14,801 nt of DNA from a virus: UHGV virus genome UHGV-0275206. One strand, given 5' to 3'. Below the pieces are notes generated by a model. The model ran no database searches. It was not told the origin of the DNA and worked only from the letters and a program-made list of their open reading frames with translations. Both the position numbers and the translations under genes were made by a program. Below are positions 1,770 to 14,801 of the stretch, in pieces; position 1 is the stretch's first letter, and the number at the start of each line of letters is the position of its first letter.

Positions 1770-2237
1770 TCATCGAAGGCATTGCGTCCTGATGTATTCC
1801 TGAAGCGTTCTCAGTGCTGTTTGGTCGCGGATAATTCCGTCCCGGATACCGAGAACGTTTCGTCCAGCAACTGGAGAGAGTTCGACGGTGGCATCATTGC
1901 CCATGCCGGAGGCGCTGGAGGTTTCGGCTGAGGATGGCACAGGGCATTTTCCTTTGACGAGCACCCGACCACCATTATCAAGCTTGCGCCGAAGAGCATC
2001 ATTTTCAGCTTTCGCATCAGCTAACTCCTTCGTGTATTTATCATCGAGTGCATCAGCATCACGCTGGCGCTGCTGCATGTCAGTAATGGTGGCGTTCGCC
2101 TTCTCCAGTTCACTGGCCTTGTTATCGCGCTGTTCTTTGTAGGCGATTGCATTATCACGGTAATGATTAACAGCCCATGACAGGCAGACGATGATGCAGA
2201 TAACCAGAGCGGAGATAATCGCGGTTACCCTGCTCAT
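1770..2237 (-). CDS. Rz: Spanin inner-membrane subunit Rz (i-spanin)
   Basis: From ATG 2237: [38 protein letters not shown]...[15 protein letters not shown], matching the lambda Rz N-terminus as I recall it. ATGA overlap with the endolysin stop. Confidence 0.88.
1811..2017 (-). CDS. Rz1: Spanin outer-membrane lipoprotein Rz1 (o-spanin), embedded in the +1 frame of Rz
   Basis: [39 protein letters not shown]...: signal peptide, lipobox (VVGC) and proline-rich segment typical of Rz1; entirely inside Rz. Confidence 0.75.
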
Positions 2238-2731
2238 TGTTGCCCCCACAAACAGACCTCACGCTCAATCTCACGACGAGTCATCAGGCCTTTCCATTGC
2301 TTACCGCCAGCGTATGCCCAGCGACGTAGCTGGTCACATGCGCCCTTGATATCGCCCTGGTTTATTTTGCGAAGAAGAGTAGATGTTCTGAAATTGCCTG
2401 CGCCCACGTTATAGACGAACGAGTAAAGAGCGCCGCGCGTTGTTTCCGGTATATCGACTTTGATGTACGGGTTAATTTGTCTGGCGACCGTGGCAAGGTC
2501 TTTATTCAGGAGGGCTTTGCATTCTGCTTCGGTATACGTTTTACCTAGCATGATGTCTTTTCCGGTGTGTCCGTAACATACAGTCCATACACCAACAATA
2601 TCTTTGTATGGTATGTGGCTAACACCTTCCAGACCATCGTCACCACTTGGGCCAGTGATTAACACAGATGCTATAGCAATTGCCCCACCACCAATAGCAG
2701 CAGCAACAGCCTTGCGTAATGATGGCGACAT
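2234..2731 (-). CDS. R: SAR endolysin (T4-lysozyme-like muramidase, phage 21 R-type)
   Basis: 165 aa, [59 protein letters not shown]...: Gly/Ala-rich N-terminal signal-anchor-release domain followed by a lysozyme fold; near-identical to what I recall of phage 21 R. Overlaps the holin stop by ATGA/TAATG coupling. Confidence 0.9.
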
Positions 2732-2946
2732 TATTCACCTCTCGCAGCCTTACGCTTATCTTCTTTAATCTTGAAATAAAGGTTTGTCAGATACGTCAGC
2801 AAGCCAAATACCAGACTACCCAGCACTCCAATTGCCGCCCACTGTGAGGGCGTGACTTTATCGAGCAACTGTAAAAACCAGTACCCGACACTACCTGCTG
2901 AGGTGCCATAGGCGACACCCGTTGTTAACTTATCCATGGATTTCAT
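2731..2946 (-). CDS. S: Pinholin, class II holin of phage 21 S type, with dual-start motif (MKSMDK)
   Basis: From ATG 2946: [71 protein letters not shown] (71 aa). The MKS-M start pair gives antiholin and holin forms. SD GAGGTGG upstream. The ORF-track extension to 3009 begins with GTG and is unlikely. Confidence 0.9.
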
Positions 2947-2983
2947 AACCCCACCTCGCAGATGCGGGTGCTGTGTAATGGAA

Positions 2984-3008
2984 ATAAAAAGGCCACCTGA
3001 CGTGGCCA
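2984..3008 (-). terminator. Rho-independent terminator between the methyltransferase gene and the holin (minus strand)
   Basis: Minus strand GGCCAC-GTCAG-GTGGCC (plus 2991..3007) immediately followed by TTTTTATTT. Confidence 0.7.
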
Positions 3009-3013
3009 CCAGA

Positions 3014-4066
3014 TTATTTCCCCACCAGCTCGTTTATCTCTTTCACTGTCTGGTTAAACCGCTCTGACTCAAGCTCAACACCTAAGGCCCGACGCCCCAA
3101 CGCCATTGCTGCTTTTATTGTGGAACCGGATCCCATAAAAAAATCAGCAACCAGATCACCAGGTCGACTACTGGCATTGATTATTTGCCTGAGCATATCC
3201 GCCGGTTTCTCACACGGATGTTTACCCGGGTAGAACTGAACGGGTTTATGCATCCAGACATCGGTATAAGGCACGGAGACTGATACGGAGAAATAGCGCC
3301 GGAGAGATTTAAACTCATCCAGCAATTCAGAATATTTACGATTCAGTGAATCATAAGATGCCACCAGTTGGTGGTGTGGTTGTTCCAGTTGTTGTTCCTG
3401 AAACTTCTCTGCCGCTATACGGGAAAACAGTGCCTGTAACTTCCGATAGTCAGCCTCATTCGGCAACTGCCACTGACTGGCACCAAACCAGTGGGAAACC
3501 ATATTTTTCTTACCTGTGGCTTCGGCAATTTGTTTTGCCGTTATACCCAGTTCGGCACGAGCATCCCTGAAATACGATATCAGCGGTGCCATTATGTGCT
3601 GTTTGAGTTCCCTTTCTTTTGCCGCATAGCCGTCACTTTTGCCGCGATATGGCCCCTGGTAATGTTCAGCAAACAGAACGCGCTCTGTGGCAGGAAAATA
3701 TGCGCGCAGACTTTCTTTATTACACCCATTCCAACGTCCGGACGGCTTCGCCCAGATGATATGGTTAAGCACGTTGAAACGTTCACGCATCATGATCTCA
3801 ATATCAGATGCCAGGCGATGCCCACAGAACAGGTAAAGGCTTCCGGCAGGTTTCAACACCCGCCAGAACTGGGCCAGACAGTGGTCCAGCCACTTAAGGT
3901 AATCTTCGTCCCCTTTCCACTGATTGTCCCAGCCGTTGGGTTTCACCTTGAAGTAAGGCGGATCGGTAACAATCAGGTCAATGGAATCATCAGGCAGGGA
4001 CTGAATAAAATGCAGGCAATCAGCGTTGATTAAATCAACACTGTTTATTTTTACAGTATTTTTCAT
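3014..4066 (-). CDS. DNA methyltransferase, beta-class (motif IV DPPY before motif I FxGxG); likely N6-adenine-specific orphan MTase
   Basis: 350 aa; [10 protein letters not shown] near the N-terminus and DFFMGSGST near the C-terminus. No adjacent restriction endonuclease gene. No SD at the start. Confidence 0.85.
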
Positions 4067-4695: not shown

Positions 4696-5559
4696 TTGGA
4701 TAGTTCTACCACTTTCAAAGTCTTCTATGATGCCGAAGATGAAGAATTAGCACAGCATAAGATTGATGCAAAAACACTAAGTTTATCAATAGGGTCTATG
4801 GCTGACCTTATTGCAAAGGCGGATCGAAATCTTAATGATGGGCAGGAAACAGTCAAATTGATGGTTACCGCTCCTGCTGCACCTGGATCAATCGGTGTTA
4901 TTTATTCAATGCAAGAGTTAGTTCCTCATGCTGTCGATGTCGCCAAAGCAATTGGACTCACTGTTGCTGGTGGTGCATTAGCTGGTGGCTCAGCTCTTGC
5001 ATTGATTCGACAATTGGGGAGTAGAAAGGTTATTTCTGTTACTCGAAAGGTCGACACACAAGAAGCAGTATTAGAACTTGATGGAGAAGAAATTATTTGT
5101 CATGAGGCTGTTGCAAAGTTAGTGACTGATCCCGAAATACGACAAGCCTTAGTTAACGTAGTTAGAGCACCACTAGATGGTAAAGAGCGCCCGATCTTCA
5201 AAATTACTGATGATAATGGAGAAGAGATTCTCAAGCTTGAAGGAGAAGAAACTGAAGAAATCAAACCACTACCACGTGGTACTTTACTAGAAAAAGAAGT
5301 TTCTATTGATGAGGTTAACGTCAGATTCATTCAAGTAAACTTTGAAGGGAATAAGGGATGGCGAATTGATTATCTTGGTGAAGAACATTCAGTAAGCCTA
5401 GATGACAATGTTTTCCTTTCGCAGGTTCAGGCTGCAACAGTACAATTTTCAAAAGAGGACCTTTATGTTGTTGATTTAGAAACAACAAAAACATTTACTG
5501 CGCGTGGCGTAACAAACCGTTATGCTATCAAAAAAGTTAAACGTAGACGACCAGCTTAA
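4696..5559 (+). CDS. Cargo gene A: acidic 287-aa protein of unknown function with one Gly-zipper hydrophobic segment
   Basis: TTG start 5 nt after SD GAGG. GC about 37-40% by eye versus about 50-55% in flanking phage genes. Segment AKAIGLTVAGGALAGGSALALIRQLG carries GxxxG motifs; basic C-terminal tail KKVKRRRPA. No catalytic motif recognised. Confidence 0.6.
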   Translation: MDSSTTFKVFYDAEDEELAQHKIDAKTLSLSIGSMADLIAKADRNLNDGQETVKLMVTAPAAPGSIGVIYSMQELVPHAVDVAKAIGLTVAGGALAGGSALALIRQLGSRKVISVTRKVDTQEAVLELDGEEIICHEAVAKLVTDPEIRQALVNVVRAPLDGKERPIFKITDDNGEEILKLEGEETEEIKPLPRGTLLEKEVSIDEVNVRFIQVNFEGNKGWRIDYLGEEHSVSLDDNVFLSQVQAATVQFSKEDLYVVDLETTKTFTARGVTNRYAIKKVKRRRPA

Positions 5560-5565
5560 ACAGGA

Positions 5566-5829
5566 ATGATGTTAACCCAGCAGATCATAGAACTCGCGAT
5601 GTGGATAGGGGTGATCATGATATCACCTCTCCTGTTTCGCTTCTCATACGCTGCATCCGCTTTACTATGGCGGAGGTTATTCCCTGTTCGTAAGTTTGAG
5701 TTTGTTTTTGTCGATGAAGTCACCAACGATAAGCGGTCAATCACTATTGTCATGCCTAAAGACAAAAGCAAAACTATCGTTCAACTGATAGAAGAAGCAA
5801 CGAATGACGGCACCAGTTCAAATGTCTGA
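5566..5829 (+). CDS. Cargo gene B: small membrane protein (87 aa, N-terminal transmembrane segment)
   Basis: Starts 7 nt after the gene A stop (AGGA ATG ATG). Hydrophobic stretch LAMWIGVIMISPLLFRFSYAASALLW, then a charged soluble tail. Confidence 0.55.
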   Translation: MMLTQQIIELAMWIGVIMISPLLFRFSYAASALLWRRLFPVRKFEFVFVDEVTNDKRSITIVMPKDKSKTIVQLIEEATNDGTSSNV

Positions 5830-6235
5830 TGAAAAAAAACCAACTAGCCCAGTCACTTCAACCCTCTCTACTGGCGGTTTTGGGATCATTTTGTCAGGTC
5901 TGGTAACATTTTGCGTACCTGATGCCAATTCAAACCTTGCGAAATTACTATATTTAATAATACCTCTTATTTCGGCAATCCTGACATATATACTTTGCTG
6001 GGTAATTGCACGTCATGGACTTGAATCACCAGAAGATGCAGCAAAAAGAAAGCAATGCCTCCGAGATCTCGAGACCATTGATAAGCAATTAGCATCGAAA
6101 TATACCACTGATGAGTTTAGGCAAAAGCTGCTACGCTCTCGAGAAGCAACTGTGGAAATAATGATCAATATAGGAAAAAATAGTACAGCAAATCCATTAC
6201 CAAAATTTGAACAAATTGAGAAAGATACTGTGTAG
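5804..6235 (+). CDS. Cargo gene C: membrane protein (143 aa, or 137 aa from ATG 5822) with two predicted TM helices and a charged C-terminal helical region
   Basis: Overlaps gene B (coupled). TM candidates GGFGIILSGLVTFCV and LAKLLYLIIPLISAILTYILCWVIA; C-terminal KRKQCLRDLETIDKQLASKYTTDEFRQKLLRSREATVEIM. Ends 18 bp from the convergent Q stop. Confidence 0.55.
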   Translation: MTAPVQMSDEKKPTSPVTSTLSTGGFGIILSGLVTFCVPDANSNLAKLLYLIIPLISAILTYILCWVIARHGLESPEDAAKRKQCLRDLETIDKQLASKYTTDEFRQKLLRSREATVEIMINIGKNSTANPLPKFEQIEKDTV

Positions 6236-6253: not shown

Positions 6254-6616
6254 TTAATCCATATCTAATGTTAGATCTAGCATTGAAAGGCAGCCATCAA
6301 TAAACCCCTCAGCCATCTGTATCTCAATGCGTATTAATTTCTCATCCTTTTTACGAGCCTTGGCGAGCTTTCTTTTAGAGATACCGAATAGGTAATGGGC
6401 AACAAGAAGCGAATGTTCGTCCGGCCTTTTTTGCTTTAGACGAGCAAGACAACCTTCAAGAATTAATGCATCACTATCTGAACAAGCCTGACGTGTTTTG
6501 CTTGTATAGGGAAGAAGCCCTTTAAACCCAGCAGCTATAGGAGAATAGTCAACTCCTGAACTATCACTCGCCGCCCATGCTCCCCAACGATCCAGAACCA
6601 TTTGAATATCACGCAT
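6254..6616 (-). CDS. Q: Late-gene antitermination protein Q (short Phage_antitermQ type, as in DLP12 QuuD / phage 82)
   Basis: From ATG 6616: MRDIQMVLDRWGAWAASDSSGVDYSPIAAGFKGLL...EGCLARLKQ...; close in pattern to the roughly 125-aa QuuD-type Q as I recall it. SD GGAG upstream. The track start at 6631 is a TTG. Confidence 0.8.
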   Translation of the reverse strand: MRDIQMVLDRWGAWAASDSSGVDYSPIAAGFKGLLPYTSKTRQACSDSDALILEGCLARLKQKRPDEHSLLVAHYLFGISKRKLAKARKKDEKLIRIEIQMAEGFIDGCLSMLDLTLDMD

Positions 6617-8849: not shown

Positions 8850-9172
8850 ACTTTCAGCCCCCTCTCATGTAACCAGTGGGCTGCACGCAGCCTTGCGTTT
8901 TCCTCACCGGCAAGCAGTGAGCGGATAATCCCGACCGCCTCGCTGTCGTCGTCCTTCACCGCGGTATGAAGCGTGATCCCCCGGGCCACACCACGCTTTA
9001 TCGTGATGACGCCTTTTTTCTCCAGTGCGCGAAGATGCTCCACCGCTGCATTCACCGAACGGTATCCCAGCATGGTTGCCACCTCCTGATTGGTTGGCGG
9101 GAAGCCGCGTTCTTTCTGATAAGAAATCAGCATATCCAGCACCTGCTGCTGGCATTGAGTTAACGTCGTCAT
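8846..9172 (-). CDS. LexA-type winged-helix DNA-binding domain protein (no peptidase domain)
   Basis: 108 aa; TQCQQQVLDMLISYQKERGFPPTNQEVATMLGYRSVNAAVEHLRALEKKGVI resembles the LexA N-terminal DNA-binding domain. ATGA-coupled to the upstream and downstream genes. Confidence 0.7.
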   Translation of the reverse strand: MTTLTQCQQQVLDMLISYQKERGFPPTNQEVATMLGYRSVNAAVEHLRALEKKGVITIKRGVARGITLHTAVKDDDSEAVGIIRSLLAGEENARLRAAHWLHERGLKV

Positions 9173-9821
9173 GCCGCCATCTCCCTGACCAGTTTTTCTG
9201 CCTGCTGGCGAATCTGCGCCAGAAAGGCCTCACCACATGCCTCAAGTTCATCGCGCCCGATGTAGCTGATTGCCGGTCCCTTCCAGGTCTTGTCGAAAAC
9301 AGCAATAGCACCAGCGAAGAAAGCGCCTGTCGGCACCTGCTTCTCATCCTTCGGGATAAACCAGGCAGGCAGTTCAAAACCAATACGCCCGCGAATAAAA
9401 GCAATATGATCTACATCTTCCGGCCACCACACTTCGCTGGTGGCAGCTTTGATCAGGAAAACATAGCGCCCGCCTTTATCACGCATGGCACTGGCATGCT
9501 TCATGATGTAACGCATGCCGGTGATGTATTGCCCCCATGCTGACTGGCGCGGCTGTATGGGGGATTACCAAAGGCAGCACCTTTAAGCTCCGCAAGGCGT
9601 TCTGACCAGTCATGCGCCAGCGCGTTGTCTTCCGCCGTGTAATACGCAGCACATTTGGCGTTATCACCGTCAGTGAACAGATCCAGAACAAACGGGCCAA
9701 ACAGGGTGTTAATTCCCCAGAAAATGTTGTCCGGCGTGCGCCACTGATCGCCCACTTCCTTCAGTTCATGGGCTGGTTTGTTCCGCAGTTCCACCAGCGC
9801 CTGGCAATATTTATTACTCAT
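9169..9821 (-). pseudogene. Phage Dam-type DNA N6-adenine methyltransferase (PF05869-like) split by a -1 frameshift in a C5/G5 homopolymer
   Basis: N-terminal ORF (9501..9821) carries ...AFGNPPYSRASQHGG and stops. C-terminal ORF (9169..9516) carries ...AFIRGRIGFELP...PTGAFFAGAIAVFD. Both halves together resemble a single Dam-family protein. Adding one C to the run at 9532..9536 fuses them as ...SQHGGQYITGMRYIMKH... Confidence 0.75.
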
Positions 9822-10309
9822 TAAGCCCCCACGTAATTCCCTGAGAGATACCACTCTTCACCTGATGCAGCCCGCTTACTGCTTTTCCGTAAACACCGTT
9901 CACGACGCGCCAAAAAATTGTTTCGTTCTGGCAGGGAGTGGCTTTCACGGAATGCCGCCATCCACACCGTTGCAGCACGACGGTATAAGCCCCTGGACTC
10001 CAGTTCTTCCGCCTGGCGGGTCAGGCACAAAATCACCCGCGGGTCGTTAGTGCCGACATAGAAATTGCGCACAGGTCTGGTTTCACGAACTGGTTGTGGT
10101 TCCGGATCCTGCGCTCTCTCAGTCAGGCGCGGGAAATGTCTGTGTGTATCTCCTTCACAACGGTGAGCCACACGCCCACTCTGACGTAACTTGCTTGCTG
10201 ACTGCAGAACGCGCTGCCGTGAGTAACCTGCAAAAGCATCCGCAATGTCTCCGGAAGTACAGCCCGGATGGGCTTCAATGAATTTCTGAACGTCATTCAA
10301 AAGACTCAT
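9821..10309 (-). CDS. PerC-family transcriptional activator-like protein with an extra N-terminal domain
   Basis: C-terminal AEELESRGLYRRAATVWMAAFRESHSLPERNNFLARRERCLRKS resembles PerC-family regulators; the N-terminal roughly 60 aa (MSLLNDVQKFIEAHPGCTSGDIADAFAGYSRQRVLQSASKLRQSG) looks like a separate winged-helix-like module. Start ATG 10309 lies just after the rep stop. Confidence 0.6.
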   Translation of the reverse strand: MSLLNDVQKFIEAHPGCTSGDIADAFAGYSRQRVLQSASKLRQSGRVAHRCEGDTHRHFPRLTERAQDPEPQPVRETRPVRNFYVGTNDPRVILCLTRQAEELESRGLYRRAATVWMAAFRESHSLPERNNFLARRERCLRKSSKRAASGEEWYLSGNYVGA

Positions 10310-11601: not shown

Positions 11602-12155
11602 GCGTTAGTTTCTCCACAACCAGAAGCAATCGACGCCACGACGCCCGGAGCTGCACACTCGCGGGCGTCATTACTTTCTGAAATGCAAAAAATTTTGTAG
11701 ACAAGTGCTGCATGCTCCTGCAGCTTCGAAATTGAGAGATACAGCTCGTCGTTAATTGCTGTCTTCTCATGCGGTTCCACTACACCGTCTTCGATTGCTG
11801 AACGAATCTGTTTTGAATAACTGCCGATCTGTTCAATGACTTCCAGCAGACGCTGGTTAATATCGGCGTTGTCCACATCCTCGACGTCAGGAAGAGACAC
11901 AAAGACGCCATTTGCAGACTGCGCCACAGCGTCAGCAATGAAGTGAGTTCCACCAGCACGTTGCAAAATCATTGCCCATCCCAGCGGGAAAATCTGATCG
12001 CCATCGGCACGAAGGCGGTTAAATAATGCGTTCTCTGTTACATCCAGCCAGTCAGCTGCTTCAGCGTAACCCCCCGGCAACGCTGCGATAGTTTTTCTGA
12101 CAGCTTTCACGTACCACTCAGGCTGTTTTTCTACTTTCCAGTGATGCTTACCCAC
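11598..12155 (-). CDS. Early regulatory protein in the cII position (possibly Phage_CP76 / CII-like family)
   Basis: 185 aa from a GTG start preceded by a strong SD (AGGAGGT, 5-nt spacing) overlapping the cro-like gene end. Family assignment is from position and vague recollection only. Confidence 0.45.
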
Positions 12156-12408
12156 GGTTCACCTCCTGTTCCTGTGGTTTAAACCCATTCTGGTTTTGGC
12201 TAGATTGAAAACGTGCCGGATAAAGAATCTGCATTTCGCTGACTTCACCCTTAAAAAAATTGGCTAAACGTTCTGCAAGCTCGATAGATGGAATCTGCTC
12301 CAGCCTCTCAATACGACTCAACGTCGCTGGATTGACTTGAACACCCGCAGCAACATGCTGCAAAGTGAAACCATGCGCCTTACGCACATTTCGTAATGGT
12401 GATTGCAT
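12148..12408 (-). CDS. cro: Cro-like HTH (XRE-type) early regulator, divergent from the repressor gene
   Basis: 86 aa; HTH segment FTLQHVAAGVQVNPATLSRIERLEQIPSIELAERLANFF; SD GGAGGG upstream; first gene of the minus-strand early operon. Confidence 0.75.
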   Translation of the reverse strand: MQSPLRNVRKAHGFTLQHVAAGVQVNPATLSRIERLEQIPSIELAERLANFFKGEVSEMQILYPARFQSSQNQNGFKPQEQEVNRG

Positions 12409-12505
12409 ATGCCCTCCAAATATTGCGCGTTATGCATGTTATTTCACGCAATTATTTTGCGCAAGTTGATTTGCTTATCACGCAATAAAGAAATGTAATA
12501 AACGC
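12409..12505. promoter_or_regulatory. oR-like operator/promoter region between the cro-like gene and the repressor gene
   Basis: 97-bp intergenic region with dyad sites of form TTGC-N7-GCAA: ttgcttatcacgcaa (12471..12485, perfect) and ttgcgcgttatgcat (12423..12437, imperfect), plus palindromes cgcaattattttgcg (12447..12461) and TTGCGCAA. The repressor ORF starts without an SD, as with leaderless lambda cI from PRM. Confidence 0.6.
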
Positions 12506-13198
12506 ATGAACATAGGAAACCGAGTCAGACAACTTCGCCAAGCGAAGAACATGAAAATCGCCGATCTCGCTGAAGCAATAGGAGTAGATGCGGCGAACAT
12601 CTCGCGCTTAGAAACGGGTAAGCAAAAACAATTTACCGAACAAACACTGAGTAATATTGCCAAGAGCTTAGGTGTTGATATTGCTGATCTCTTTACCTCT
12701 GCCCACAAAAGTAATACTGTATATAAAAACAGTAATAATGAGGATGTTGCGCAGGTGAAGGATGTGTTCCGTATTGAAATGCTGGATATCAGTGCCAGTG
12801 CGGGAAATGGCCTTATCCAGGGCGGTGATGTCATTGATGTGATTCATGCCATCGAATACAGAACTGATAATGCTGTATCAATGTTCGGCGGACGACCAGC
12901 CAATCACATCAAAGTTATCAACGTTCGTGGGGACAGTATGTGTCCAACCATTGAGCCAGGAGATCTCATCTTCGTTGATGTCAGCATCAATCAGTTTGAT
13001 GGTGATGGTATATATGTCTTTGGTTTTGATGACAAAATATACGTTAAAAGACTTCAAATGATTCCTGACAAACTGCTGGTGATTTCTGATAACCAGATTT
13101 ACCGTGAATGGGGAATTACTAGCGAAAACGAACACCGATTCATGGTCTTTGGAAAGGTCTTAATCAGTCAGTCGCAAACCCTTAAGAGACATAATTAA
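12506..13198 (+). CDS. cI: CI-type prophage repressor: N-terminal XRE HTH plus C-terminal S24 (LexA-like) autopeptidase domain
   Basis: 230 aa; IADLAEAIGVDAANISRLETGKQ HTH; C-terminal GDSMCPTIEPGDLIFVD...YVKRL with Ser/Lys dyad; candidate Ala-Gly cleavage site in DISASAGNG. Confidence 0.88.
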   Translation: MNIGNRVRQLRQAKNMKIADLAEAIGVDAANISRLETGKQKQFTEQTLSNIAKSLGVDIADLFTSAHKSNTVYKNSNNEDVAQVKDVFRIEMLDISASAGNGLIQGGDVIDVIHAIEYRTDNAVSMFGGRPANHIKVINVRGDSMCPTIEPGDLIFVDVSINQFDGDGIYVFGFDDKIYVKRLQMIPDKLLVISDNQIYREWGITSENEHRFMVFGKVLISQSQTLKRHN

Positions 13199-13217
13199 CC
13201 TCAATATCCCATCCATC

Positions 13218-13240
13218 GGCCACCGAAAGGTGGCTTTTTA
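13218..13240 (+). terminator. Rho-independent terminator after the repressor gene
   Basis: GCCACC-GAAA-GGTGGC (13219..13234) followed by TTTTT (13235..13239). Confidence 0.8.
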
Positions 13241-13252
13241 CTACCTATAAAT

Positions 13253-13289
13253 TTGCATACCTCGCAAATATCACTTGCATATCTCGCAA
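13253..13289. promoter_or_regulatory. oL-like pair of repressor operators
   Basis: Two perfect TTGC-N7-GCAA dyads, ttgcatacctcgcaa (13253..13267) and ttgcatatctcgcaa (13275..13289), 22 bp centre to centre; same architecture as the site in the cI/cro intergenic region. Confidence 0.55.
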
Positions 13290-13452
13290 TTTAATTTTAT
13301 CTTTTGTTCCAGACCAACTACAGGATTACAACAAAATCTGGTTGCAACACGGTGCATGTGTCGTAAGCAGTCAGTAAATGTCAAAAACGAACAGGCAGGA
13401 CGCCCACGAAGTAGCCGCCTGGGGCATATGAAGTCCAGGATGATTCGTTAGC

Positions 13453-13478
13453 AACAAAAAAGCGCCCTACAGGACGCT
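13453..13478 (-). terminator. Rho-independent terminator downstream of the zinc-ribbon gene (minus strand)
   Basis: Minus strand GCGTCC-TGTA-GGGCGC (one G-U pair) followed by TTTTTTGTT. Confidence 0.6.
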
Positions 13479-13517
13479 TAGCTCTTTAGCAATCTGGATA
13501 TCCACAACAGTAGTAAT

Positions 13518-14009
13518 CTACAGATTGCCGTTAAGTTTTCTGGACAACTCCTCAATGGATGGAGGCGATACGTAATCCGGATTTTTATTCATCAGAAACT
13601 TATTTTCACAGTGGAGGCACCTGCTTTTATGAAAAAGCTCATCTTCGCTAACCGGGAATGGTTGAAGTATCGATACTATCTTTTGTCCAAAACATTTTGG
13701 GCAAAGATGCATGGTTATGCTGCCACCGTTCACGATTACCTCCTTCGAGTATACAAAAGTACCCGACTCAAGTTGGTTAAGGATATAGCCTTCCGTCTGA
13801 GCCTCAAAGTTTTCGAATTCTGCAATTTTAGCTTTGAGAGAAGCATTTATTTCTTGATAAGAGCCCACCAGTTCAACGAGAGACACGCATTCGCGCTGAA
13901 TAGACGCAAGCTTTGAGTTCAGCTCACCAATAGCCGCATTTACTTCAGCTTGAGTTTTTGCCTCGTTCATTAGTTTTGCAATCTGGGCTGTTTCACGAAT
14001 AGCCGTCAT
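13518..14009 (-). CDS. Hypothetical coiled-coil protein with C-terminal CxxC...CxxC zinc-ribbon (about 163 aa from ATG 14009)
   Basis: From ATG 14009: MTAIRETAQIAKLMNEAKTQAEVNAAIGELNSKLASIQRECVSLVELVGSYQEINASLKAKIAEFENFEAQTEGYIL...MHLCPKCFGQKIV...SRCLHCENKF. The ORF-track N-terminal extension (MWCRVPPGAWRRLH...) looks non-coding. Own terminator; orientation convergent on cI. Confidence 0.6.
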   Translation of the reverse strand: MTAIRETAQIAKLMNEAKTQAEVNAAIGELNSKLASIQRECVSLVELVGSYQEINASLKAKIAEFENFEAQTEGYILNQLESGTFVYSKEVIVNGGSITMHLCPKCFGQKIVSILQPFPVSEDELFHKSRCLHCENKFLMNKNPDYVSPPSIEELSRKLNGNL

Positions 14010-14047
14010 TGCTGCCGTTAATTCAGCGATCACATTGAATACTCTTA

Positions 14048-14093
14048 TTGTTGTTGGGGATATCCAGATTAACCGAATCCTTGTTGTTGGGGA
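14048..14093. repeat. Two perfect 13-bp direct repeats ttgttgttgggga, 33 bp apart, upstream of the zinc-ribbon gene
   Basis: Copies at 14048..14060 and 14081..14093, each (TTG)3GGGA; located 40-85 bp upstream of the ATG at 14009 on the minus strand. Confidence 0.6.
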
Positions 14094-14295
14094 ATAACCA
14101 GGTCCACCTCGCCTGATGTGGCTAAAAGCAGGCACATAACAGCTAAGTATTTTCAACCAGAGAGAATCCTTAGCGTTGTGGTGAATGCGGCTCAGCGCAC
14201 GCGGGTTAAGGTTGAGGCTGACAGTCGACCTTCTGTGGATACCCACCCGCCTGGTGTGCAACCTTCGCCAGGCACCGGGAGGCACCCGGCACCAC

Positions 14296-14366
14296 AACTT
14301 TATGCTGTGTGTAGTCCTGGCGGTACCAGTTTGTACCCTTGCTTCCGGCTGGTACCGTCCTTTTTT
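14296..14366 (+). ncRNA. DicF-like small RNA candidate ending in a strong intrinsic terminator
   Basis: CCUGGCGGUACCAGUUUGUACCC resembles the DicF core (UUUGGCGGUAUCAGUUUUACUCC) as I recall it. Hairpin GGCGGTACCAG (14319..14329) with CTGGTACCGTC (14349..14359), then TTTTTT (14361..14366). No ORF with an SD in the region; lies in the pL-side operon, as dicF does in Qin. Confidence 0.45.
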
Positions 14367-14367
14367 G

Positions 14368-14454
14368 CAAAACAGAGAAGAGCATCACCGGACGACGGGC
14401 TCATAACCCAATCCATCCGGGCGGCTGCCACCGCAGGTGTTCTTCTCTGTTTTG
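14368..14454. repeat. Long-range perfect 14-bp inverted repeat enclosing 59 nt (extended RNA stem-loop candidate)
   Basis: caaaacagagaaga (14368..14381) and its reverse complement tcttctctgttttg (14441..14454), between the DicF-like terminator and the next gene start. Confidence 0.6.
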
Positions 14455-14503
14455 TGGAGAAACCAACCGACCTTGCAGGGTCGATATGATGAGGAGCAGC
14501 AAA

Positions 14504-14731
14504 ATGGCTAGCGAACGCAGTACTGATGTGCAGGCATTTATCGGGGAGCTGGACGGCGGCGTATTTGAAACCAAAATCGGCGCAGTTCTCAGTGAGGTCG
14601 CTTCCGGTGTGATGAACACGAAAACCAAAGGGAAGGTCTCACTCAATCTGGAAATCGAACCGTTTGATGAGAACCGTGTGAAAATCAAACACAAACTCTC
14701 ATTGAACCGCCCCGGAAATCCTGGAGACTAA
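14504..14731 (+). CDS. Small early (pL-side) gene truncated by IS insertion; native part about 66 codons, last 9 codons come from the IS end
   Basis: ATG 14504 preceded by SD GAGGAG (7-nt spacing). MASERSTDVQAFIGELDGGVFETKIGAVLSEVASGVMNTKTKGKVSLNLEIEPFDENRVKIKHKLS, then ...LNRPGNPGD* encoded by the IS terminal repeat from 14703. Confidence 0.5.
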   Translation: MASERSTDVQAFIGELDGGVFETKIGAVLSEVASGVMNTKTKGKVSLNLEIEPFDENRVKIKHKLSLNRPGNPGD

Positions 14732-14801
14732 ACTCCCTGAGAAAGAGGTAAACAGGATGACTAAAAATACTCGTTTTTCCCCCGAAGTCCGTCAGCGGGC
14801 G
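14703..14801 (+). mobile_element. Left end of an IS3-family insertion sequence (IS629/IS1203-like), continuing beyond the window
   Basis: Terminal inverted-repeat-like sequence TGAACCGCCCCGGAAATCCTGGAGACTAAACT from 14703, then SD GAGG and orfA start. Confidence 0.75.
14757..14801 (+). CDS. IS3-family transposase OrfA, N-terminal fragment
   Basis: ATG 14757 translating MTKNTRFSPEVRQRA, the typical start of IS629/IS3-group OrfA (HTH part of the transposase). Confidence 0.75.
   Translation, partial: MTKNTRFSPEVRQRA

Follow-up and report, generated by a model that had tools for sequence, protein, structure and literature searches.

The insertion sequence IS629, of which IS1203 and IS3411 are isoforms, generates target duplications of 3-4 bp and inserts into targets without sequence specificity (PMC3271280). 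Prophages are its main location in Escherichia coli O157:H7, where they harbour 62% of the copies, and matching duplications have been retained by only 21 of 47 copies in O157:H7 genomes (PMC3271280). The sites occupied by IS629 have been catalogued in the O157:H7 strains Sakai and EDL933 and their relatives (PMC3271280), and the site described below, at codon 67 of the prophage gene yfdP, is absent from the complete genomes that we searched.

The closest comparable case is found in the closed genome of E. coli RM13322 (NZ_CP050498.1), in which a full element of 1310 bp (locus L002, 6870-8179), starting with TG and ending with CA, is inserted in yfdQ. In RefSeq this copy is annotated as a transposase of the IS3 family that has a programmed frameshift; its OrfA matches HTH_Tnp_1 and its OrfB matches rve/HTH_21, its terminal inverted repeats agree at 22 of 25 positions, and the 3-bp duplication ACC stands on its flanks. 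Over 1310 nt the copy shows 99.5% identity to an element of phage BP-4795 that is annotated as OrfA/OrfB of IS629; its identity to copies in the Stx2a phages of O157:H7 is 98.2%. The module that carries IS629 in yfdQ also contains an IS600, upstream of int.

Other insertion sequences provide two further points of reference. Polar insertions are known from the early operons of phage lambda, for example those of IS2 such as lambda r32, and in lambda N-modified transcription overrides the polarity of the inserted element. Insertion of IS911 is attracted by sequence resembling an inverted repeat.

Here we describe an insertion at the extreme end of a viral genome sequence (UHGV-0275206), hereafter the window, by which we mean the whole stretch of 14,801 nt that was analysed. 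It shares with RM13322 the left-end allele and orientation of IS629, the early-left module and the same cI-type repressor; it differs in its target gene, the RM13322 copy being 466 bp further downstream with a clean ACC duplication, and in that the window holds the left end of the element only. An event of this type, IS629 in an accessory prophage gene, is already known, and what is new is the insertion site.

Results and Discussion

Junction of yfdP with IS629 at codon 67

Alignment to intact genes shows native sequence up to position 14702 and divergence from 14703. When positions 14300-14801 were compared by megablast with 5,426 complete E. coli genomes, similarity ended at 14702 (query position 403) in 1,084 complete-genome records, these being the records in which at least 80% of the query was covered, and the underlying gene in the matched genomes is annotated yfdP. 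At the point of divergence TGAACCGCCCC... in the window corresponds to ATGTTCGCCC... in intact genes; in a longer view of the alignment, sequence is shared up to ...AAACTCTCAT and then continues as TGAACCGCCCCGGAAATCC... in the window and as ATGTTCGCCCAAC... in intact yfdP. The native portion (14504-14702, +) comprises 66 of the 120 codons (1-66) plus the opening base of codon 67, and matches with 100% identity the initial 199 nt of the 363-nt yfdP of E. coli AMSCJX02 (locus L001, 6205-6403), in which the gene is intact and encodes 120 aa; the same fragment is 100% identical in many other genomes. Its ATG at 14504 is the RefSeq start of YfdP in relatives (L001 6205 corresponds to window 14504). 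The open reading frame from this start begins MASERSTDVQAF... and runs to a TAA stop at 14729-14731, giving a chimeric product of 75 aa (14504-14731, +) in which 66 YfdP residues are followed by the tail LNRPGNPGD.

All 99 nucleotides from 14703 to the end of the window (14703-14801, +) are identical to RM13322 L002 6870-6968, the first 99 nt of the IS629-type element of the IS3 family. The left inverted repeat (IRL; 14703-14727, +) starts 5'-TG; in the full-length reference copy, its 25 positions agree with the reverse-complemented right end at 22. The ribosome-binding site of orfA, AAGAGG, can be read at 14743-14748 (+), 8 nt before the orfA ATG, and codons 1-15 of orfA (MTKNTRFSPEVRQRA; 14757-14801, +), which is cut by the window end, are identical to those of the reference copy. 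On a longer ENA contig orfA is called as a partial gene (L003, 10254-10340). The element is oriented in the same direction as yfdP.

The first-pass annotation had proposed an IS3-family element whose terminal repeat begins at 14703 inside a small open reading frame and adds nine codons of its own. The position is exact to the base, divergence and the 99/99 identity to the IS left end coinciding there, and the nine codons are those of the tail that follows the 66 native ones. Membership of the IS3 family is upheld by the identity of the left end to a 1310-bp copy that is itself 99.5% identical to annotated IS629; on this sequence identity the inserted element is confirmed as an IS629 isoform, with only its left end lying within the window.

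A different reading of the same letters would make the sequence from 14703 a native variant C-terminus of YfdP that is present in some phages, with no IS involved. Comparison with intact homologues, to which the first-pass annotation had also pointed, bears directly on this: unlike the window, yfdP in 2,503 complete-genome records, in phage SfV and in phage PhiR49_1 continues ATGTTCGCCC... to a conserved 120-aa product. The continuation in the window is moreover that of an IS end found thousands of times in E. coli genomes, and it includes the start of a transposase gene. A native variant C-terminus is ruled out by the intact continuation in relatives together with the IS-end identity of the window, and its probability is vanishingly small.

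We considered whether an inverted-repeat-like sequence within yfdP (AACCGC...TTTCC) had attracted IS629. This was rejected because alignment of either inverted repeat was no better than with shuffled sequence: for IRL and IRR aligned locally to yfdP with 300 nt on either side, the observed score was reached by 390 of 500 and 36 of 500 shuffles respectively.

Support for the junction and its distribution

Assemblers are at their least reliable within repeats, and it is within one that the window ends; an assembly chimera would be a contig wrongly extended into an IS located elsewhere in the genome. Against this, the exact 75-aa chimeric protein is found on 18 contigs that show the same junction and come from at least four samples, two assemblers and different values of k; its sources in the protein collection are Logan and ENA only. 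We inspected four of these contigs, one of 27 kb from ENA (megahit, k141) and three from Logan (k31). Upstream of the junction they show no mismatch to the window over 10,199, 7,527, 3,601 and 1,570 nt, and they end 141, 30, 30 and 30 nt into the IS, that is, after k or k-1 bases. For a de Bruijn contig to run k or k-1 bases into a repeat, k-mers and hence reads must span the junction, which argues that the junction is no chimera, and we regard a chimeric origin as very improbable.

The same behaviour explains where the window stops. Its last position, 14801, is 99 nt into the IS and is almost certainly the end of a contig at the repeat, consistent with k = 99. A short-read assembly graph would break at multi-copy IS629 and so leave the window to end at this point, and because of that break the sequence beyond 14801 is unreachable from these assemblies. 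Contigs that end inside an IS conceal the second junction, of which this case is a practical reminder.

None of the 5,426 complete E. coli genomes searched has the junction at codon 67 of yfdP, and an exact pattern for the left junction has no match in GTDB representative genomes or JGI metagenomes. We infer a single event in one lysogen lineage or clone. The junction can thus serve as a lineage marker, occurring in none of the 5,426 complete genomes and yet fixed in one clone that is represented in at least four samples.

Position of yfdP in the prophage

The gene layout of the window was established from gene calls and Pfam matches. A cI-like repressor gene (12506-13198, +), whose product has HTH_3 and Peptidase_S24 domains, stands opposite a cro-like gene (12148-12408, -), and a terminator scan places the cI terminator at 13218-13235. 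Exact matches to the operator-like palindrome TTGC-N7-GCAA occur three times in the whole window and all of them flank the cI-like gene, one in the cI-cro spacer (12471-12485) and two just 3' of the cI terminator (13253-13267 and 13275-13289), the latter pair marking a putative oL/pL. To judge from their sequence and position, the three palindromes probably serve this immunity type as its oR and oL operators. From 13383 onward the window is homologous to the heteroimmune phages SfV and PhiR49_1. A simple promoter scan of 12300-14801 detected no consensus sigma-70 promoter, so pL is placed by the operators and the boundaries of the immunity region, which put a rightward oL/pL at about 13250-13305.

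Intact relatives have a constant gene order on this side of the repressor. In SfV and PhiR49_1, which are viable, the genes cI, yfdP, yfdQ, yfdR, two small genes, xis and int follow one another on one strand (in SfV, cI, orf33, orf32 (yfdP), orf31, orf30, orf29, orf28, xis and int), and the order is the same in AMSCJX02 and RM13322. In the window yfdP lies on the + strand, 1.2 kb downstream of the cI-like gene. The operators flanking cI and this synteny agree with the first-pass placement of the interrupted gene among the early genes on the pL side, and support the view that yfdP belongs to the early-left operon of a lambdoid prophage.

A full-length match to the STnc100 small RNA family (RF02076) lies on the + strand (14145-14368), downstream of the putative pL and ahead of yfdP; with 40.3 bits (E = 2e-7) it is below the gathering score of 47; at gathering thresholds Rfam reports nothing in the window, and STnc100 appears only in the relaxed search. 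STnc100 is a prophage small RNA and a relative of PasD (bioRxiv 10.64898/2026.05.13.724894). The 3' hairpin of the STnc100-like RNA (14322-14358) is followed by a U-run, through 14368. This terminator-like hairpin lies between the putative pL and yfdP, and the promoter that serves yfdP is therefore uncertain. In relatives, RefSeq describes the stretch 14145-14368, just upstream of yfdP, as a 'frameshifted hypothetical protein', which by its resemblance to STnc100 is probably a mis-called non-coding RNA.

A very long stable hairpin (14361-14465, +) occupies the space between the STnc100-like terminator and the start of yfdP. The leader from 14300 to 14510 folds with -90 kcal/mol (z = -5.5), and the sequence from 14318 to the yfdP start is 95-98% conserved in many heteroimmune phages, among them Stx2c phages, mEp460 and SfV. 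The hairpin may serve as a leader, or it may attenuate yfdP expression.

A gene of 171 aa (13518-14033, -) with its own terminator (13460-13479) runs in the other direction in the interval that separates yfdP from the putative pL, which is a moron-like position. Its product has no significant match in Pfam and matches phrog_1244, a family of unknown function, and its C-terminal part contains two Cys pairs (CPKC...CLHC).

The remainder of the window, on the minus strand, contains the genes for Rz, lysozyme and holin (1770-3009), a DNA methylase (3014-4066) and Q (6254-6616), as well as DUF968, KilA-N, RusA and LexA-like genes and genes for Dam, PerC, an O-like HTH_36 protein and a CP76 (cII-like) protein. 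Three + strand reading frames of 287, 87 and 143 aa (4696-6235) lie between Q and the DNA methylase and lysis genes; they have no match in Pfam and run opposite to the surrounding late-gene direction.

The gene for the Dam-type N6-adenine methyltransferase (9169-9854, -) is split into two reading frames by a 1-nt deletion between 9535 and 9536, where the window has CATG-GGGG and RM13322 and PhiR49_1 have CATGAGGGG; the deletion is also present in independent contigs. With this exception, the visible genes from the replication to the immunity region are organised as in the sequenced phage PhiR49_1.

The far end of the element

The best overall explanation is a transposition of IS629 into codon 67 of yfdP by simple insertion, which we consider fairly probable. 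An element of 1310 bp would have moved by copy-out/paste-in into an SfV/DLP12-like lambdoid prophage, striking what would be the first conserved gene of the early-left operon; the IS copy would be complete, and its right end would be joined to the remainder of yfdP through a duplicated CAT. This triplet (14700-14702) is the presumptive target, to judge from ACC in RM13322 and the 3-4 bp duplications of IS629. Simple insertion implies that CAT is repeated at the other end of the IS, the second copy lying outside the window. The right junction is then predicted as ...GGGGCGGTTCA (ending GGTTCA), followed by CAT or TCAT and by ATGTTCGCCC...; with the triplet it would read GGGGCGGTTCA-CAT-ATGTTCGCCCAACTAACC.

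The exact DNA of this predicted junction, with a duplication of either 3 or 4 bp, does not occur in GTDB representative genomes or in JGI metagenomes. An exact look-up of the junction-specific ORF products expected from contigs assembled with k31 or longer k found none in the protein collection, and a homology search with the predicted right-junction product found no N-terminus derived from IS629, but brought to light the separate breakpoint in intact yfdP that is described in the last section. A 35-aa product with an internal start is on record, and 9 of the 10 places shown for it are contig-edge partials; the tenth (L007) was examined as a candidate and rejected, being an unrelated gpJ-yfdP fusion and no IS629 right junction.

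That the right junction was recovered neither by DNA pattern nor by ORF look-up or homology search speaks for a second explanation, according to which the IS629 copy marks the boundary of a rearrangement and something other than the 3' part of yfdP now follows the IS. After insertion, recombination between IS629 copies, or a deletion or inversion adjacent to the IS, would have deleted or moved the segment from yfdQ to int and left a prophage without its excision module. Such a history would accord with the absence of matching target duplications from more than half of the IS629 copies in O157:H7 (PMC3271280). The region from yfdP to int is also prone to rearrangement, RM13322 having both IS629 and IS600 there, and many independent deletions and one inversion terminate in yfdP. 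Set against this, several copies of the yfdP 3' part and of yfdQ are present in many genomes (at a median of 3 places in each), so that contigs with the right junction may be tiny and without a called gene, which makes the negative result a weak one; GTDB is limited to a single genome for each species, and this strain is rarely represented in JGI metagenomes. RM13322, the closest comparable case, is moreover a simple insertion with a 3-bp duplication. We regard a rearrangement boundary as possible though doubtful.

Predicted effects on YfdP and on the early-left operon

YfdP matches phrog_204, a PHROG family annotated as of unknown function, and has no match in a local copy of Pfam. No solved relative was found, and a Foldseek search of the PDB with the predicted structure returned nothing with E < 0.01 or TM > 0.34. 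The gene is dispensable for the replication-inhibition phenotype of yfdQRST and for its effect on DnaA (PMC4776307).

The insertion leaves 66 of the 120 residues with a 9-residue IS tail. What is lost is the half of YfdP under the strongest conservation: of the 26 columns that are invariant among 33 aligned homologues, 20 fall beyond residue 66. In the AlphaFold model (mean pLDDT 74), a helix (residues 9-39) precedes three strands (44-55, 58-71 and 74-88), and the cut at residue 66 falls inside the second strand of this sheet. With 20 of the 26 invariant columns lost and a strand of the predicted sheet severed, it is a safe inference from alignment and model that the truncated YfdP would be inactive.

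Effects on the genes downstream are less certain. The element lies between the promoter and the distal early genes, as do the polar insertions of lambda, and polarity is to be expected in both; lambda has the N override, whereas here no N-like gene or nut site was identified. A search of the full-length IS for sites resembling intrinsic terminators found none on the + strand. Polarity, if there is any, would therefore depend on Rho and need not be strong. Rho-dependent termination over the mostly untranslated orfB would lower pL-driven expression of yfdQ, yfdR, the two next genes, xis and int, and a polar effect on xis and int, if present, would contribute to fixing the prophage in the chromosome. 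Crippling of the pL operon by IS629 is possible, and the earlier judgement that the insertion probably cripples this operon is not borne out, given the lack of an intrinsic terminator on the + strand of the IS.

The further suggestion that the insertion, alongside two frameshifts, fits a defective prophage could likewise not be substantiated, since dam and yfdP are accessory and the remaining visible genes are organised as in PhiR49_1. As for frameshifts, the one in dam stands, the 1-nt deletion being real; the RefSeq 'frameshifted hypothetical protein' upstream of yfdP is likelier to be the non-coding STnc100-like RNA. IS629 in accessory prophage genes is part of the usual decay of E. coli prophages and is of little significance on its own.

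The transposase gene of IS629 starts 25 nt past the stop of truncated yfdP, in the direction of the early-left transcript. Since orfA would thereby follow a repressor-controlled transcript, SOS induction could drive a burst of IS629 transposase. We think it improbable that the insertion has regulatory effects beyond the loss of a gene, whether as such an induction-driven burst, as a prophage locked by polarity or through a feature shared with the hot spot in yfdP that is described below.

A recurrent breakpoint in intact yfdP

Intact yfdP contains, 14 nt downstream of the IS629 site and so outside the window, a TA dinucleotide that forms the fixed end (TAACCGCGGGAAAATTTCC...) of a recurrent breakpoint. 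The breakpoint is at L001 6417-6418, and the fixed end encodes YfdP from residue 72 onward. At least 17 unrelated sequences are found fused upstream of this end, in rare and mostly singleton ORF clusters from different genomes. In the DNA, one pair of TA sites, of which window 14240-14241 is one member, is seen with a deletion (L019, L020) as well as with a conservative inversion (L021). Further partners of the TA end are located within rusA (window 8642/8643), a tail-fibre gene, gpJ and a DUF4145 gene. The pattern resembles site-specific or TA-targeted recombination. Were the middle of yfdP a specific hot spot of this kind, with at least 17 independent rearrangements at the TA, the insertion of IS629 might, though improbably, reflect the same local DNA feature. 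The native sequence is known for three partner sites, and in each of these the crossover falls at a TA and the 5' flank is rich in G.
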